In this document: positions 823 through 6,692 of the stretch, in pieces | Position numbering within the stretch: the stretch's first letter is position 1 | Layout: each line of letters opens with the position of its first letter | IMG/VR virus record: IMGVR_UViG_2711768074_000020 | Coordinates: 1 to 6,902 of that record | DNA: 6,902 nt | Source of the DNA: a virus | Taxonomy: Duplodnaviria; Heunggongvirae; Uroviricota; Caudoviricetes | Reading direction: 5' to 3' (one strand) | The notes under the pieces: generated by a model | Database searches by the model: none | What the model was told of the DNA's origin: nothing | The model's input: the letters and a program-made list of their open reading frames with translations, nothing else | Program-made: the position numbers and the translations under genes

Positions 823-1716
823 CTATTTCCAGTTACAAGCAGCTTGAAGTGGTTTTAGCGCGTTTGACAGGCCGTTTAAATTGAAAGTTGCACTTACAGG
901 GCTCTCATTATAAGGAGTTATTTTTGTATACATTTTGTTTGAGTTGGCTAGTTTTCGGATGAAATCAATGTCATTACCTTTATAAAAAACAGCCTTTGTA
1001 TCTGTAGATACTAGCCAGTTTCGCTCAACTGCTTTCTGTTTATCAAGACGATAAAGCATGCTGGTTTGTTCAAGGCCTAAATATACATCCCAACTAAGAA
1101 ATACTTCGGTTTTCTTTTCTCGGCAAGCTATAAACAGAGTAGGAGTAACCGCTTCTCCAAATGGAGTTCTGATATAATCATCACTTTCTAACGATAAAAT
1201 TACATTTTTCGAATCATCAATTGGCGATGTAGTAATGGATGTGTGCCATTTTCCTACATCTGTGGCTTTCTCTAATTTTGATTCAGCTTGAACAGCTTTA
1301 TCCTGTGGGAATAGTTTATCGTAGCAGTTTAGTCTGGCTTCTTTATCATTTTCTGCTCGGCATTTAGATATCTCAGAAAGATTTGGTTGCTGAGCCTCTG
1401 TTGTTACTGGCTTTTCCGTTTTAGATTTTGAGTTTACAGATGGAGTAAATGTTGGAGAAAAAAAACGATCATAACAAGATAAACGTCTGTCATCATCTTT
1501 CTCATCAGGGCATTGATCTCTGCTTTCGAATTTTTCAGCAACTTTCGTTCGAGTCGGTTGTATTGACTTATCGTAACAAGAAAGTCTGTCTTTATTATTT
1601 TCTATTGCTCGGCACTGGAGTACTGCATTGAAGTTATTATGTTCAGTTGCTGCGTGAACAGGCAGTACACTAATTGATATAAATGATGCACCTATAGAAA
1701 AAATTATATTTTTCAT
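823..1716 (-). CDS. Secreted protein of unknown function with Sec signal peptide and three tandem C-x11-C-Y-D repeats plus a C-terminal ~150-aa domain
   Basis: 297-codon ORF; N-terminal MKN + hydrophobic core + VHA|A signal-peptidase I site, no lipobox Cys; repeats at residues 35-49, 69-83 and 119-133 (QCRAIENNKDRLSCYDK / QCPDEKDDDRRLSCYDR / KCRAENDKEARLNCYDK); AAGGA RBS 8 nt upstream, overlapping the end of the upstream gene (4-nt intergenic gap); AT-rich. Confidence 0.65.
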   Translation of the reverse strand: MKNIIFSIGASFISISVLPVHAATEHNNFNAVLQCRAIENNKDRLSCYDKSIQPTRTKVAEKFESRDQCPDEKDDDRRLSCYDRFFSPTFTPSVNSKSKTEKPVTTEAQQPNLSEISKCRAENDKEARLNCYDKLFPQDKAVQAESKLEKATDVGKWHTSITTSPIDDSKNVILSLESDDYIRTPFGEAVTPTLFIACREKKTEVFLSWDVYLGLEQTSMLYRLDKQKAVERNWLVSTDTKAVFYKGNDIDFIRKLANSNKMYTKITPYNESPVSATFNLNGLSNALKPLQAACNWK

Positions 1717-1720
1717 TTTG

Positions 1721-2053
1721 TTATCCTTTTGGTTTAGTAAGAAACACTAAAATTCCGATAATGATATCGCCAATAACCCATAAACTTCCAATGGTAATTA
1801 AACCTAAGCCTGTACCAATAACTGCACCGGCTTTTTCGGCATCGGATGTAGCATTATTTATTATTTCACTAGTGCCTCCCAGTCCAACTAAAAGCGTATA
1901 TATCATAAAAATATTAAATAATATAAAAATCCACTTAATGAGCTTTCCAAAAAATGAACGCTTAAGTTTTTTTATTTGTTTACCGCAAGCAGGGCAATAC
2001 AATGCTGAATCGCTCACCTCTTTCTGGCATTCAGGACATTTGATTAATGCCAT
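1721..2053 (-). CDS. Small zinc-ribbon membrane protein (N-terminal CPEC...CPAC ribbon, two predicted TM helices, glycine-zipper-like second helix)
   Basis: 110-codon ORF; ATG at 2053..2051 with AAGGAGG 7 nt upstream; CxxC-x10-CxxC at residues 6-23; hydrophobic stretches about 38-58 and 76-105 with G-x3-G spacing; AT-rich; first gene of an apparent two-gene operon. Confidence 0.65.
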   Translation of the reverse strand: MALIKCPECQKEVSDSALYCPACGKQIKKLKRSFFGKLIKWIFILFNIFMIYTLLVGLGGTSEIINNATSDAEKAGAVIGTGLGLITIGSLWVIGDIIIGILVFLTKPKG

Positions 2054-2314: not shown

Positions 2315-2455
2315 TTACTGCTTACACTGTAAGAACGCCGCAAACTCCGCTCCCCAGAAACTCATCCGTATTTCGCACAGCGAACCGTGCAACATCCAGA
2401 TGATGAGGATTACCGTCACGCAGAACGTGATGGCTGTAAGCGATTTTTGCGACAT
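2315..2455 (-). CDS. Hok/Gef (HokA/PndA-like) type I toxin family small membrane protein, 46 aa
   Basis: Translated by hand from the minus strand: MSQKSLTAITFCVTVILIIWMLHGSLCEIRMSFWGAEFAAFLQCKQ. N-terminal TM segment then W-M-x3-SLCE(I/L)-x8-E-x-AAFL-x-CK, in register with recalled HokA/PndA sequences (two conserved Cys). AAGGAG RBS 8 nt upstream. Absent from the ORF track, which appears to list only ORFs of 60 aa or more. Confidence 0.6.
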   Translation of the reverse strand: MSQKSLTAITFCVTVILIIWMLHGSLCEIRMSFWGAEFAAFLQCKQ

Positions 2456-2645
2456 AGCACTTGCTCCTTTTCCGGAGAGGCGCTAACCTTTCACTTGCTT
2501 AGGGTAGACGGTTAGGGCCTCGGTTAAACAAAAGTGTTTTCCGGGGCCTTTCCACATCTGGCCTTCGGGTATTCCCTCCGACCATCAGCCGAAAGGCACC
2601 CGCGCGTAATCTATCGCTTTTTTGTTACTCCGGCAATTCTGCTTG

Positions 2646-2906
2646 TTAATTCTGAGGTAAAGGCAAACTCATCTGATTGTTTCCCCTGTGTGAAGCTGGT
2701 AGCTCATGCCACGGGATACCTTCTGAAGAGTGAACGCCGGAGGCGTGTTTCGATGTGAATTTATGGAAAGCTTCCAGTGTTGAGAAGCATACGCCGCATT
2801 CCAGATTGTTACACTGGTAATACTTTTGCCGCACGGTGTTTGAATCATTTTCCGGACGACTTGTGCGGATACGGGCAGATGCGCCACAAAGCGGACAACG
2901 GAACAT
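2646..2906 (-). CDS. ogr: Ogr/Delta-family zinc-finger late-gene transcriptional activator (P2 Ogr-like)
   Basis: 86-codon ORF starting MFRCPLCGASARIRTSR...YYQCNNLEC: C-x2-C-x24-C-x4-C zinc-finger spacing and N-terminal MF-x-CPLC signature of Ogr; GGGAGG RBS 5 nt upstream; about 14 aa longer at the C-terminus than the ~72-aa P2 Ogr as recalled. Confidence 0.8.
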   Translation of the reverse strand: MFRCPLCGASARIRTSRPENDSNTVRQKYYQCNNLECGVCFSTLEAFHKFTSKHASGVHSSEGIPWHELPASHRGNNQMSLPLPQN

Positions 2907-3014
2907 AGCGACCTCCCTTAACGTGGTGTTGCCGCTATTCTAGATTGTACGATCCCTAATTCCAACTAACAGCTCGCTCTGTGCGAAGAGTGAAAATTGA
3001 ACTTTCAATAGTTG

Positions 3015-3043
3015 TTGAACTTCCATACATCCAATGTGAAAAT
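3015..3043 (+). promoter_or_regulatory. Putative sigma70-type promoter of the cargo gene
   Basis: TTGAAC (3015..3020), 17-nt spacer, GAAAAT (3038..3043) in a very AT-rich region about 55 nt upstream of the ATG at 3098; alternative -10 CATAAT at 3053..3058. Hexamer matching by eye only. Confidence 0.2.
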
Positions 3044-3097
3044 TCATACGTTCATAATAGTTAAAATTTAAAATATTGTATATCAGGTGAATAAAGC

Positions 3098-4120
3098 ATG
3101 GGAAGAGATATAACGCTGTACCCTAAAAAAGCAACTAGAAACGAACTTAAAAATTACCTTGAAAATTTAGGTTTTAAAAGGTGTAAACATTTGTGGGAAT
3201 GGCCCCAAGGAACGTTGAATTACTCTTGGTTTGATGATACGGACTTCAAATCTACAGATGGAGTTTCGGCTGATATATATCCTGTTTCAAATGACGAACT
3301 ACACATATCTGGTAATAAATGGGCATTGCATGTGCGTAATTTATATAGCGCTAGTTGGCATGATGTAAAAATGCTTAATGATGTTCTAAAAGGCGCACGG
3401 AGTCTTTTTGGTGGAACACTTATAGGTGATTATGGGAAAAATAGGTACGCTCCTCTATGGAAGGATTCTAGTAGTCCGATCAGTCGTGGCATTTCTTCAA
3501 TATTTAATCATGTCCATCATGAGATTTCCGCTGTTAAACATGCCTTACCTGAACCTTCTATTAAATTAAACCTACCGGAAGATGGCGGCTTATCCGAATA
3601 CTTTGATTACATGCAATGTATGGATCCCAGTAGAGTTATATATAATGGATTAGTACCTTTTGCGGTTGCTATGTTTGAATATTTTTTCTCTAGAGCTTTT
3701 CAAATACTTATAAAGTACGATCCTTTCGCAATAGCAAAAAGAACATCGTATAAGCAAAAAGTTGATTTTGATATTCTGCTTGAGATAGAGAAAGGAAATA
3801 TTTCAATAGAAAGTGTTATTGCAAGAAATTACACTTTTCAAAACTTAACCCACCTAAACAAAGCATATAAAGAGTGGCTGGATATAGATGTGAGAGCGAT
3901 TCTTTATAAGAAAAAAAGAATTGGAAAATCAGTTGATTTTCTTGAGAATCGAATTTCTGAAATCATACAATATAGACATGGGATAGTTCATCACTTTGAG
4001 TTGGATAGGACCTTAAATCGGGATGGATATATTCATATATTAGATGCGATAGAAAAAAGCATAATTGAATTTATCCATTACATAGAAGGCAAATACAAAT
4101 TTAAATTAAATGCGTATTAA
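3098..4120 (+). CDS. Hypothetical 340-aa protein, AT-rich moron between D and ogr; helical C-terminal region with an R-x4-H (HEPN-like) motif; candidate abortive-infection/defence protein
   Basis: 340-codon ORF on the strand opposite both flanking phage genes; AGGTG RBS about 8 nt upstream; sampled GC roughly one-third versus over one-half in D and FI (counted by eye); motif YRHGIVHHF at residues 292-300; no recognisable Walker or other catalytic motif in the N-terminal half. Confidence 0.75.
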   Translation: MGRDITLYPKKATRNELKNYLENLGFKRCKHLWEWPQGTLNYSWFDDTDFKSTDGVSADIYPVSNDELHISGNKWALHVRNLYSASWHDVKMLNDVLKGARSLFGGTLIGDYGKNRYAPLWKDSSSPISRGISSIFNHVHHEISAVKHALPEPSIKLNLPEDGGLSEYFDYMQCMDPSRVIYNGLVPFAVAMFEYFFSRAFQILIKYDPFAIAKRTSYKQKVDFDILLEIEKGNISIESVIARNYTFQNLTHLNKAYKEWLDIDVRAILYKKKRIGKSVDFLENRISEIIQYRHGIVHHFELDRTLNRDGYIHILDAIEKSIIEFIHYIEGKYKFKLNAY

Positions 4121-4148
4121 GCAATCAACCTTACATAGGGATGACAAA

Positions 4149-4172
4149 GTCCGCTTCTGACACGGAGCGGAC
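4149..4172. terminator. Putative bidirectional terminator hairpin between the convergent cargo gene and D
   Basis: 9-bp stem (one G·U pair) with 6-nt loop, GTCCGCTTC-TGACAC-GGAGCGGAC; T-rich sequence follows on the plus strand and TTTGTCAT on the minus strand; lies between the stops at 4120 (+) and 4241 (-). Confidence 0.4.
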
Positions 4173-4240
4173 CGTCGTTTATGTTTAATTCTATACTGTA
4201 AACTTGCCAGTTTAAGTCTGAGCTAATATGTCTAAGTTGC

Positions 4241-5350
4241 TCACTCTGTTTCTGCTATCCATTCCGGGATTTTTGCCTCAAGCTCAAGCTGTGTGGTAAA
4301 GCCGCTGTTATCAATGGTGTGCTCGGCTTTTGCAATAATCCAGTCCTGATTATCAATCTCGCTTTTAAAGCCTGTTACCGTGCCATGCATTTCGGGGTAG
4401 AGTTCTGCGCGTCCGCGTGCCAGCATGATGGAGAATGATGCGGCTCCGCGTTGTAGCTGCTGCCACTTTGCCGCCGCTGCGCGTCTTGCTGCCTGCTCGT
4501 TCTGATAAGTCTTGCGTAACACAAACACATTGCCTTCCGCGCCTTCCATATAATCACCTTCACGGCTGCTGCTTTTCTCCTTTTTGGGTTTTGGCGGTTT
4601 GCGGCGTTTCACGCTGACTTTTTTCTTTTTCCCGTAATTAAGATCAAGCCAGTAGGCGCGTACACCCGTATACGCCTCGCGGTCAGCAATGCGGAACTGA
4701 TGGCGATCGCCGCTGCTGCGTGTGATGGCAAACGATGGCAACGGCTGGCCCTGCGCGTTCACGCCACCTCCGGGCATGATGAATAACAGATTACCGCTTT
4801 TTACCGTGGTGATTGCGCCCAGCATTTCCGCCATGCGCGTAAGGAAGGACATGTCGCTTTCTTCGGTCTGGTCGGCGTGGTCGATTTCGATATCCATCAG
4901 CATTTCGCTGATTTGCGGTTTCAGACCATACCGATGAGCGATGGCGGATACCACACGCTCAACGGTCACATCATGCCAGGACACCTCACGTTTAACGTTA
5001 AATTCATCCCGAAAATCTGCGCTTCTGGCTGAAACAGTCAGCCTGTCCGGCGGTCCTTCGTGAGCGATTTCATCAACAATGTAAGTGCCTTTTTCTGTCA
5101 GCGGTTCCCCTTTCCAGCCAATGAGAACCGTCAGACGCGCGCCCCGTGGCGGTAGCTGCAACTGGCCATCGGCATCATCCAGCGTGATGGTGAGCTGGTC
5201 CGCCTCAAATCCCCGGTTGTCGGTCAGTGACAGGTTCATCAGGCGTTCTGCCACGCCGGACAGCGTTTTACCCTCGGCGAGAATATCAAAATCCGGCATT
5301 TTCACGGGGTCTGTGCCCTGACTGAGCAATTGCATGGTGGTGTCGGTCAT
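4241..5350 (-). CDS. D: P2 gpD-like tail protein (late control gene D / gp27-VgrG-like baseplate hub family)
   Basis: ORF track gives 4241..5482, but the ATG at 5350 has a strong GGAGGGAG Shine-Dalgarno 3 nt upstream, whereas the 44-codon upstream extension is Ser/Thr/Arg-rich with no RBS. The 369-aa product is close to P2 gpD in size; motifs such as ESDMSFLTRMAEMLG resemble the gp27/VgrG N-terminal hub fold; same strand as and adjacent to ogr. Confidence 0.7.
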   Translation of the reverse strand: MTDTTMQLLSQGTDPVKMPDFDILAEGKTLSGVAERLMNLSLTDNRGFEADQLTITLDDADGQLQLPPRGARLTVLIGWKGEPLTEKGTYIVDEIAHEGPPDRLTVSARSADFRDEFNVKREVSWHDVTVERVVSAIAHRYGLKPQISEMLMDIEIDHADQTEESDMSFLTRMAEMLGAITTVKSGNLLFIMPGGGVNAQGQPLPSFAITRSSGDRHQFRIADREAYTGVRAYWLDLNYGKKKKVSVKRRKPPKPKKEKSSSREGDYMEGAEGNVFVLRKTYQNEQAARRAAAAKWQQLQRGAASFSIMLARGRAELYPEMHGTVTGFKSEIDNQDWIIAKAEHTIDNSGFTTQLELEAKIPEWIAETE

Positions 5351-5507
5351 CTGCTCCCTCCCTGTGTGGCATGGTCGCATGTGCGTGCGGAGGGGGTTAC
5401 TGCTTTTTGTTGTCGCCGTGGCGGGAGAACGGCGCAGGGGTGAGATTACGCGCGTGGTGGGTGATGATTGTTGCCGAATCATTTAACGGATACAAGGGGC
5501 TGAAGCT
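5351..5507. promoter_or_regulatory. Divergent intergenic region between D (-) and FI (+), presumably carrying late promoter(s)
   Basis: 157-bp GC-rich spacer between two divergent start codons, each with its own RBS (AGGGG 8 nt upstream of the FI ATG). No clear TGT-N12-ACA Ogr-type dyad was seen by eye. Confidence 0.3.
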
Positions 5508-6692
5508 ATGAGTGAAACTCGTTTTCATGGTGCCCGTGTTACGGAAAATACCGACCTGGTAACAGCGATTAACGATGTTGATTCCAGCGTTATCGGTATC
5601 GTGGTAACGGCGGATGATGCGGACGCGAAGCTGTTCCCGCTGAACAAGCCCACACTGCTGACCCGCGTCAATGACGTGCTGGGAAAATGCGGAACAACGG
5701 GGACGCTTTATCGTGCGCTTAAGGCCATCGCAGACCAGGTGAGCACAAAGGTGATCGTCGTTCGCGTGGCTGAACACAAAGAAGAAGACGAAAAGACGCA
5801 GGATCAACTGGTTATCGGTGGTTCTGAGGATGACGGCAGCTATACGGGGATGTATGCGCTGCTTGTTGCAGAGCAGGATGAAAGCATCGGATACCGTCCG
5901 CGTATTCTGGCCGCGCCGGAGCTGGACACGGAGGCGGTGACAAAATCCCTGTGCGTGATTGCGGGTAAACTGCGCGCATTTGTGTATGCCTCATGTCACG
6001 GCTGTAACACGATGGCTGAAGCGATTACCTACCGCCAGAAATTCAACGAACGTGAAGTGATGCTCTTATGGCCGGACTTCATCGCCTACAACCCGAAAAG
6101 TGGCGAAAACGAAACGTTCCCCGCGCCTGCTTATGCGTGCGGCCTTCGTGCGTACATTGACCATGAGCAGGGCTGGCACAAATCGCTGTCCAACGTTCCG
6201 GTTAAAAATGTGCTGGGGATGTCGAGGCATGTGTTCTGGTCGTTGCAGGCCGAAGACAGCGATGCCAACAGCCTCAACAACAAAGAAATCACGACCATTA
6301 TTCGTCGCAACGGGTTCCGCTTCTGGGGCAACCGCACACCGGAAACGAACGCCTACATTTTTGAGGTGTATACCCGAACCGCACAGGTGCTGGCTGATTC
6401 AATTGCGGAAGCGCAGTTTGAAACCATCGACAGTCCACTGACGCCTGCGAACGTGAAGGATGTTATCAGTGCCATCAGGGCAAAACTGGATTCACTGGTT
6501 ACTGCCGGGAAACTGATTGGCGCAGAGTGCTGGTATGACGTGGTGGATAACAGCACCACGGATTTACGTCAGGGGCGTGTGCGTATTCGCTACAAATATA
6601 CGCCCGTTCCGCCACTGGAAGACATGGAGCTTTACCAGACGTTTACTGATGAATACTTTGAACCCGCATTTGCGGTGCTGGGAGGTGCCTGA
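5508..6692 (+). CDS. FI: P2 FI-like contractile tail sheath protein
   Basis: 394-codon ORF; motifs FPLNKP, GFRFWGNRT, YTRTAQV, HEQGWHKSLSNV and YKYTPVPPLED match the recalled P2-family tail sheath; the stop overlaps the next start (TGATG). Confidence 0.85.
   Translation: MSETRFHGARVTENTDLVTAINDVDSSVIGIVVTADDADAKLFPLNKPTLLTRVNDVLGKCGTTGTLYRALKAIADQVSTKVIVVRVAEHKEEDEKTQDQLVIGGSEDDGSYTGMYALLVAEQDESIGYRPRILAAPELDTEAVTKSLCVIAGKLRAFVYASCHGCNTMAEAITYRQKFNEREVMLLWPDFIAYNPKSGENETFPAPAYACGLRAYIDHEQGWHKSLSNVPVKNVLGMSRHVFWSLQAEDSDANSLNNKEITTIIRRNGFRFWGNRTPETNAYIFEVYTRTAQVLADSIAEAQFETIDSPLTPANVKDVISAIRAKLDSLVTAGKLIGAECWYDVVDNSTTDLRQGRVRIRYKYTPVPPLEDMELYQTFTDEYFEPAFAVLGGA

Follow-up and report, generated by a model that had tools for sequence, protein, structure and literature searches.

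A predicted solo HEPN nuclease gene is variable cargo between ogr and D of P88-like Escherichia coli prophages and has relatives across phyla in integron cassettes

The window analyzed here (the whole 6,902-nucleotide stretch of DNA) corresponds to the right-hand end of a P88-like prophage (Peduoviridae, Xuanwuvirus/Gemsvirus) inserted beside flk in E. coli. Its genes and main features are as follows.

1-119: end of an insertion sequence, inserted in flk
to 555, minus strand: flk
823-1716, minus strand: TagO/VasI-like gene
1721-2053, minus strand: Zn-ribbon membrane gene
about 2250-2622: hok/sok
2646-2906, minus strand: ogr, late transcription activator and left conserved flank of the slot (Pfam Ogr_Delta, E=5e-14; RefSeq annotation)
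2943-4230: inserted cargo, missing from the ogr-D junction of P88 and P88_4B11 (blastn breakpoints 2942 and 4231; GC 0.342)
3098-4120, plus strand: 340-aa ORF, RefSeq WP_000532200.1, "hypothetical protein"
4241-5350, minus strand: gpD, tail/baseplate hub and right conserved flank of the slot (Pfam Phage_GPD, PHROG 52; RefSeq CDS of 1,110 nt)
5508-6692, plus strand: tail sheath, divergent from D

The hok/sok module lies 300 bp away at the same prophage end, and an Rfam scan of the whole window placed sok at 2442-2601 on the minus strand and otherwise returned noise. For gpD, an ATG at 5482 is probably too far upstream to serve as the start.

The original prediction singled out a 340-aa ORF at 3098-4120 on the plus strand, between ogr and gpD on the minus strand, and its coordinates, strand, and length were confirmed. 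That the ORF is real follows from 295 homologs of about 340 aa in a 90%-clustered database and 284 clusters at 50% identity. It had been described as far more AT-rich than its neighbors, which GC content bears out: 0.337 for the ORF and 0.342 for the 2943-4230 cargo, versus 0.511 in the left flank and 0.542 in the right. The P2 setting assumed for the locus held in part. D and ogr are indeed adjacent in P2, 81 bp apart (the gap is 42 bp in P88_4B11), but the host phage is P88-like (Xuanwuvirus/Gemsvirus) rather than P2 proper, and its D and tail-sheath genes are divergent. A D gene pointing away from the sheath operon is the usual P88-type arrangement, unlike that of P2.

In blastn comparisons, P88 and P88_4B11 align with the window up to 2942 and resume at 4231, which makes 2943-4230 a clean 1,288-bp insertion. 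Whether the D-ogr junction is a variable cargo slot had been proposed as a check by alignment of related prophages, and the alignment answers in favor of it: P88 and P88_4B11 have nothing at the junction, and other genomes have different single genes there. A survey of 5,426 complete E. coli genomes, with both flanks joined as the query, found the two flanks in about 1,054 of them, or roughly 1 in 5. In an evenly spaced sample of this ranking, about two thirds of the slots were empty, with a span of about 3,365 bp; an occupied junction is thus not universal. The other sampled slots held the gene studied here, a 356-aa PIN_12 protein, a 500-aa PIN_4 protein, a 379-aa SEC-C-motif protein, unknown proteins of 221, 384, and 487 aa, or IS481, with cargo genes on either strand. 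PADLOC matched none of the seven alternative cargos, and none is a recognized defense gene. Occupied slots share an extra 30 to 48 nt on the left and 11 to 87 nt on the right that are missing from empty slots, a pattern suggestive of recombination between occupied variants as the way in which cargo is exchanged. The studied cargo occurs in 65 of the 5,426 genomes, among them strains IHE3034 and O55:H7 DEC5A, always as a single, chromosomal, full-length copy with at least 98% identity, and in about 6% of the P88-like prophages with conserved flanks. A search of 50,697 phage records retrieved it in the 500465-2 prophage record alone, which is present there in two copies. The deviant GC content, the presence or absence of the gene between conserved flanks, and the alternative genes sustain the original view of a horizontally acquired single-gene moron.

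Signals and borders of the cargo unit were placed as follows.

2980-4172, plus strand: unit common to the non-prophage Hafnia and Mixta loci, 82-84% nucleotide identity (blastn)
3015-3043, plus strand: candidate sigma-70 promoter, with a putative -35 box TTGAAC at 3015-3020, a 17-nt spacer, and an extended -10 box TGTGAAAAT at 3035-3043
[quoted passage not shown]
4149-4172, plus strand: G+C-rich terminator-like hairpin between the convergent cargo gene and gpD

The shared unit comprises the gene, 118 nt upstream of it, and the downstream hairpin. Neither the Hafnia nor the Mixta locus has homologs of D or ogr, and both copies sit in unrelated islands that are not P2-like. The gene has its own ribosome binding site, as anticipated, with the Shine-Dalgarno sequence AGGTG at 3085-3089 (plus strand), 8 nt ahead of the ATG; this site and the upstream region are conserved in the E. 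coli/Hafnia/Mixta alignment. The predicted promoter-like and terminator-like signals found weak support. A consensus scan of the upstream region on the plus strand gave no site scoring at least 9/12, but the weaker candidate at 3015-3043, below that threshold, is conserved in the three-genus alignment. A hairpin with a 9-bp stem does occur at 4149-4172 on the plus strand, but it has a poor T tail, and the number of hairpins in the scan is not above chance (3 found versus 1.7 ± 1.5 expected). Its stem is kept at the locus of the Mixta homolog, and the hairpin is common to locus L013, which has a different plus-strand cargo. A reading of this hairpin as an attC site was discarded, as the arms beside the putative cores cannot pair. 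The GTTAAAA at 3060-3066, which corresponds in position to a GTTAGAT in the Hafnia copy, may be a relic of a cassette boundary.

The protein is divided into two domains, the second of which carries the predicted active site.

3098-3472, plus strand: N-terminal alpha/beta domain, aa 1-125, with near-invariant S52, G55, S86, D89, N94, F104-G105-G106, and G113
3593-4096, plus strand: C-terminal HEPN domain of the RiboL-PSP-HEPN type, aa 166-333
3974-3991, plus strand: catalytic motif R293-H-G-I-V-H298 (Rx4H)

The sole Pfam match of the query is HEPN_RiboL-PSP (PF18735), at residues 181-329 with E=1.2e-4 and a score of 22.5 bits against a gathering threshold of 28.4. The same family is matched by 44 of 60 diverse relatives at E≤0.01 (best, 4e-10), and many homologs carry a precomputed PF18735 match. 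Across these 60 sequences, which reach down to about 20% identity, the catalytic R293 and H298 are invariant, as are G55, D89, E194, and F247; S86, N94, F104, G105, G106, G113, N183, Q248, and H294 are near-invariant. Both the Rx4-6H motif and the all-alpha helical-bundle fold of the HEPN superfamily are present in the C-terminal domain. The AlphaFold2 model of the whole protein (pLDDT 94.1, pTM 0.87) lays out an alpha/beta domain from residue 1 to about 125, a long helix at 127-149, a less confident linker, and a helical domain at 166-333, with a basic beta-hairpin ahead of the catalytic helix. On these grounds, the C-terminal half is a predicted HEPN nuclease domain with intact catalytic residues. 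The listed full-length relatives, of about 320 to 370 aa, have the same two-domain layout, and shorter ones resemble fragments. Further searches with the protein gave no PADLOC-DB v2.0.0 family at E≤0.1, no NCBIfam or PHROGs match, no PDB relative by sequence or family-profile search, and no significant match among the BFVD viral structures.

The N-terminal half had been reported to belong to no recognizable family, and this stands: Pfam matched it neither in the query nor in any of the 60 relatives. Modeled alone, the domain reaches a pLDDT of 95.8, and the structural check on an AlphaFold model, which had been called for, returned no close structural relative in the fold comparison. A profile search with the domain retrieved only fragments of its own family, and so there is no sign that it has been shuffled onto other effectors. 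Its identity as an L-PSP/RidA domain was ruled out by the lack of a Pfam match.

Strong purifying selection acts on the protein over its full length. The window copy compared with those of Hafnia and Mixta gives a dN/dS of about 0.10; in comparisons with more distant copies, dN is still only 0.2 to 0.28 at saturated synonymous sites. Saturation combined with low dN means that the 60 to 73% identity seen across phyla reflects constraint on both domains, and recent transfer as its cause was ruled out. The N-terminal domain is at least as conserved as the HEPN domain in pairwise identity, at 78% versus 72% in a close set and 31% versus 29% in a diverse set, and its pN is lower in six of seven comparisons. 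This is the main oddity of the protein: the putative sensor is as conserved as the nuclease or more so, which is usually not the case for sensors of fast-evolving phage proteins. Such conservation favors a conserved ligand or partner over a variable phage protein as the cue.

The gene is not phage-specific and occurs across phyla, largely as an integron cassette. Relatives were found in Gammaproteobacteria, Desulfobacterota, Bacteroidota, Spirochaetia, Gemmatimonadota, Acidobacteriota, Cyanobacteria, Verrucomicrobia, and candidate phyla, and in all 31 loci compared the GC content of the gene is below that of its surroundings. Neighbor clustering over these 31 loci revealed no recurring partner gene. 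A scan for defense neighbors took in two genes on each side (110 proteins, PADLOC and Pfam). Homologs are often next to known defense genes: strong PADLOC matches include HamB (Hachiman), a DrmD-like SNF2 helicase, type I restriction-modification (RM) methylase and specificity subunits, a CBASS cyclase, ThsB (Thoeris), PDC-M43A/B, and PDC-S08. Pfam neighbors also include insertion sequence and transposase genes, and many of the loci have no known defense gene within two genes on each side. One Pseudomonas copy lies inside an integrase/AlpA/DUF927-primase island.

Cassette borders were recognized in Shewanella, Aeromonas, Halomonas, Endozoicomonas, Desulfuromusa, Moraxellaceae, Marinobacter, Natronospirillum, Alloalcanivorax, and others. 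On the 5' side, divergence between these loci sets in precisely at GTTATATG, roughly 38 nt upstream of the ATG. On the 3' side, ATATAAC directly after the stop codon is followed by an imperfect palindrome of 50 to 90 nt and then by GTTAT(A/G). These arrangements are attC sites with complementary R'' and R' cores; despite their differing internal sequences, the bottom strands are predicted to fold to the expected bulged hairpin. The attC scanner was crude, with background counts alike on both strands, and for this reason only sites abutting the gene were trusted. Sites resembling attC border the cassette on both sides in L019 and L036, and one lies directly 3' of the gene in L025, in L027, and in L034, the last with two more upstream on the same strand. 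In these five loci the sites were identified by scan and folding, and in L004, L005, L018, and L020-L024 by inspection. By their attC borders, many of the non-enterobacterial copies appear to be integron cassettes. The scan found no intact attC at the window copy. Integron cassettes are a reservoir of compact single-gene defenses, HEPN-only ones included (10.1101/2024.07.02.601686; 10.64898/2026.03.17.712381).

Comparison with known systems sets this protein apart from each of them. The RiboL-PSP-HEPN family was catalogued in 2013 as predicted to be active and defense related and as distantly related to AbiD/AbiF (PMC3710099). The C-terminal domain of the query matches its profile (PF18735) below the gathering threshold and keeps the Rx4H of catalytically active HEPN domains, but in the founding members this domain is joined to an L-PSP endoribonuclease or the gene shares an operon with ParB, whereas the query has an uncatalogued N-terminal domain and no partner gene. 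The L-PSP Pfam family was absent from all 60 family members scanned, as was a conserved neighbor from the 31 loci. The closest working analog is HepS, a single-HEPN abortive-infection protein of the Gifsy-1 prophage, which is triggered by the siphovirus tail-tip protein J and targets tRNA (PMC13043305). HepS, at about 218 aa, is without the additional alpha/beta domain at the N terminus, and no sequence similarity was detected between it and the query. The RnlA/LsoA (RNase LS) toxins are among the closest architectural analogs. HEC-07 (10.1101/2024.01.29.577857) is possibly another, by the fold of its N-terminal domain, but its effector is RelE-like rather than HEPN and it has an extra thioredoxin-like domain. 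Unlike AbiD/AbiF (Abi_2), neither the query nor its 60 relatives match the Abi_2 Pfam family, and Rfam found no abiF motif in the window. HEPN-MNT (HepT/MntA) and RnlAB have an adjacent cognate antitoxin gene, whereas the query has no recurrent neighbor in the 31 loci.

Esos and Taranis from the Vibrio cholerae chromosomal integron and the AbiU2-HEPN cassette of V. mimicus are compact, single-gene, HEPN-type, and attC-bounded, like the relatives of the query, the likeness of Esos being drawn from its description. AbiU2 belongs to a HEPN family different from that of the query, and the window copy differs from these integron defense cassettes in having no intact attC and an upstream region of its own. 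P2-type prophages have described hotspots for old/tin between A and Q, for Z/fun in the tail region, and a third between a tail protein and CI (PMC9122126, PMC9519451, PMC13586616, 10.1101/2024.10.15.618418). The slot described here resembles them in its conserved flanks and swappable, mostly single-gene, AT-rich cargo, but it lies between ogr and D of P88-like phages and its cargos have no PADLOC match.

The reading that we favor, with moderate confidence, is that a P88-like prophage carries the gene as lysogenic-conversion cargo and that the product is a self-contained HEPN RNase, most likely a one-protein abortive-infection defense, in line with the defense or exclusion function first suggested for it. 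The variable slot, the HEPN fold with its invariant residues, the solo gene, the purifying selection, and the defense-island and cassette contexts all point this way. HepS is a precedent for a prophage-encoded single HEPN protein that detects infection and cuts tRNA (PMC13043305). In the mechanism that we envisage, the gene would be transcribed in the lysogen from its own promoter, divergently from ogr, and the protein would be kept inactive. A cue associated with infection would lift the inhibition, probably by way of the conserved N-terminal domain together with altered oligomerization, whereupon the Rx4H site (R293/H298) may cut cellular RNA, whether tRNA anticodon loops or mRNA. Translation would then halt, and with it the replication of the superinfecting phage. 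Against this reading, a solo toxin with no visible inhibitor needs autoinhibition, the alternatives in the slot include no recognized defense gene, PADLOC v2, NCBIfam, and PHROGs lack a model for the protein, many of the scanned loci have no known defense neighbor, the N-terminal domain is unusually conserved for a sensor, and the promoter evidence is weak.

The same nuclease might instead serve addiction, as a post-segregational killer that stabilizes the prophage, integron arrays, or islands rather than opposing phages, with a hidden antitoxin in the form of a small RNA, a tiny ORF, or a host factor; we hold this reading, antitoxin included, to be rather improbable. Sedentary integron arrays do carry stabilizing toxin-antitoxin cassettes, and the hok/sok module 300 bp off at the same prophage end would fit such a role, as would the precedent of the related AbiF, which is neutralized by RNA (PMC12373285). 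The loci themselves argue otherwise. No neighboring ORF is conserved in the 31 of them, no MNT gene is nearby, and a partner would not fit into the cassette versions, in which the gene has about 38 nt upstream and its stop codon abuts attC. With neither a partner gene nor an abiF-type RNA, and with nothing meaningful (no repeat array included) in a search for repeats around the gene, a classical toxin-antitoxin system is not what the locus resembles.

Its place among late genes, adjoining the late activator ogr, would also suit an RNase that serves the phage in lytic growth or induction, by host RNA shut-off, late-transcript processing, or counter-defense, and some phages do use RNases. This is very unlikely given that most slots are empty and only the above 6% or so of flanked P88-like prophages have the gene, that its orientation is opposite to that of the late operons, that most homologs are outside phages (in integron cassettes, RM operons, and defense islands), and that the phage records and BFVD structures yielded nothing beyond the two copies of the 500465-2 record. 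Hardly any credence can be given to a neutral hitchhiker or a remnant in decay that has no present role in E. coli, to which a sporadic distribution and the lack of a known phenotype might speak, when dN/dS is about 0.10, the catalytic residues do not vary from phylum to phylum, every one of the 65 E. coli copies is intact with an identity of at least 98%, and the ribosome binding site and upstream region are conserved.

A literature search did not find WP_000532200, retrieved the term "RiboL-PSP" only in unrelated work, and turned up no description of the protein architecture, of the N-terminal domain, of the P88-like ogr-D slot with its cargo set, or of a dual life in integrons and prophages. 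If confirmed, abortive infection by this protein would add a tractable single-gene HEPN defense of 1 kb that is native to E. coli. The unusually conserved N-terminal domain raises the question of what a solo HEPN nuclease with no partner gene senses. A bolder combination, speculative and on the whole unlikely, would make the family a cross-phylum, integron-borne, one-protein immune RNase whose N-terminal domain, with its invariant Ser/Asp/Asn/Gly-Gly cluster, is a new class of sensor for a conserved signal (host RNA, a nucleotide or metabolite, or the state of the translation apparatus) rather than a variable phage protein, and would also make the ogr-D junction an unmined defense hotspot whose PIN, SEC-C-motif, and unknown cargos are new defenses as well. 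The presence of one gene family in both pools ties prophage hotspots to integron cassettes, and the ogr-D junction of a very common type of E. coli prophage looks like an unmined cargo slot, with at least six other uncharacterized cargo genes.

In other E. coli strains, the ogr-D slot holds alternative cargos (L009-L014) of one gene each, which encode the following products:

a PIN_12 protein of 356 aa;
a PIN_4 protein of 500 aa;
a SEC-C-motif "YecA family" protein of 379 aa;
unknown proteins of 221, 384 and 487 aa.

PADLOC returned no match among these alternative cargos, and we regard every one of them as a candidate defence gene. A 62-nt attC downstream of homologues of the 340-aa ORF is 96-100% identical among loci from Halomonas, Endozoicomonas, Desulfuromusa and a Proteiniphilum MAG (L018-L021), despite the divergence of the coding sequences that precede it. 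The near-identical attC sites point to a common cassette lineage or a common integrase preference. The 4.2-kb contig DEQA01000038.1 (L015), assigned to the MAG "Planococcaceae bacterium UBA3378", is 99.9% identical to window positions 2801-4400, a stretch that takes in the cargo and reaches into the beginning of gpD, and its TagO gene is identical to that of the window. It is almost certainly an E. coli contig mis-binned into a Firmicutes MAG.

Cargo exchange might also reach the neighbouring regulatory gene. A promoter-like site on the minus strand (2937-2965) spans the left insertion junction, with its -10 hexamer (TAGAAT) within the conserved flank and its -35 hexamer (TTGGAA) within the cargo. 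Thus, the cargo may provide part of the ogr promoter, and ogr expression could change with different cargos in the slot. On the other side of the insertion, the longest gpD ORF (minus strand, 4241-5482) specifies 413 aa from a start at 5482. PHROG and RefSeq back a start near 5350 (369 aa), and the 44 codons upstream of it are probably untranslated.

Further accessory genes lie between the prophage end and ogr:

823-2053, a second AT-rich cargo pair at the prophage end (GC 0.356);
2250-2622, a type I toxin-antitoxin module of the hok/sok type, flanked by the prophage-end morons on one side and ogr on the other.

The pair consists of a TagO/VasI-like protein (297 aa), in which Cys-containing motifs recur, and a 110-aa zinc-ribbon membrane protein, and is also present in both P88_4B11, a relative with an empty slot, and 500465-2, a phage record that carries the 340-aa ORF. 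Within the toxin-antitoxin module, the Rfam sok match (2442-2601, minus strand) reaches 51.9 bits and so falls short of the gathering score of 59; relatives have an annotated Hok/Gef CDS.

The first 119 nt of the window are foreign to the flk locus, as every E. coli match begins at position 120. They belong to a multi-copy sequence found at up to 32 places per genome and on 336 plasmids, and end in TGTGTATAAGAGACAG, which we take to resemble an IS4/IS50-type terminal repeat. This stretch is likely an IS inserted in flk, truncating Flk after approximately residue 147. Downstream of the window in the same prophage (L048, 20867-22921), a serine recombinase adjoins tail-fibre and assembly genes that face in opposite directions, the invertible host-range segment usual for P2/P88-like phages.
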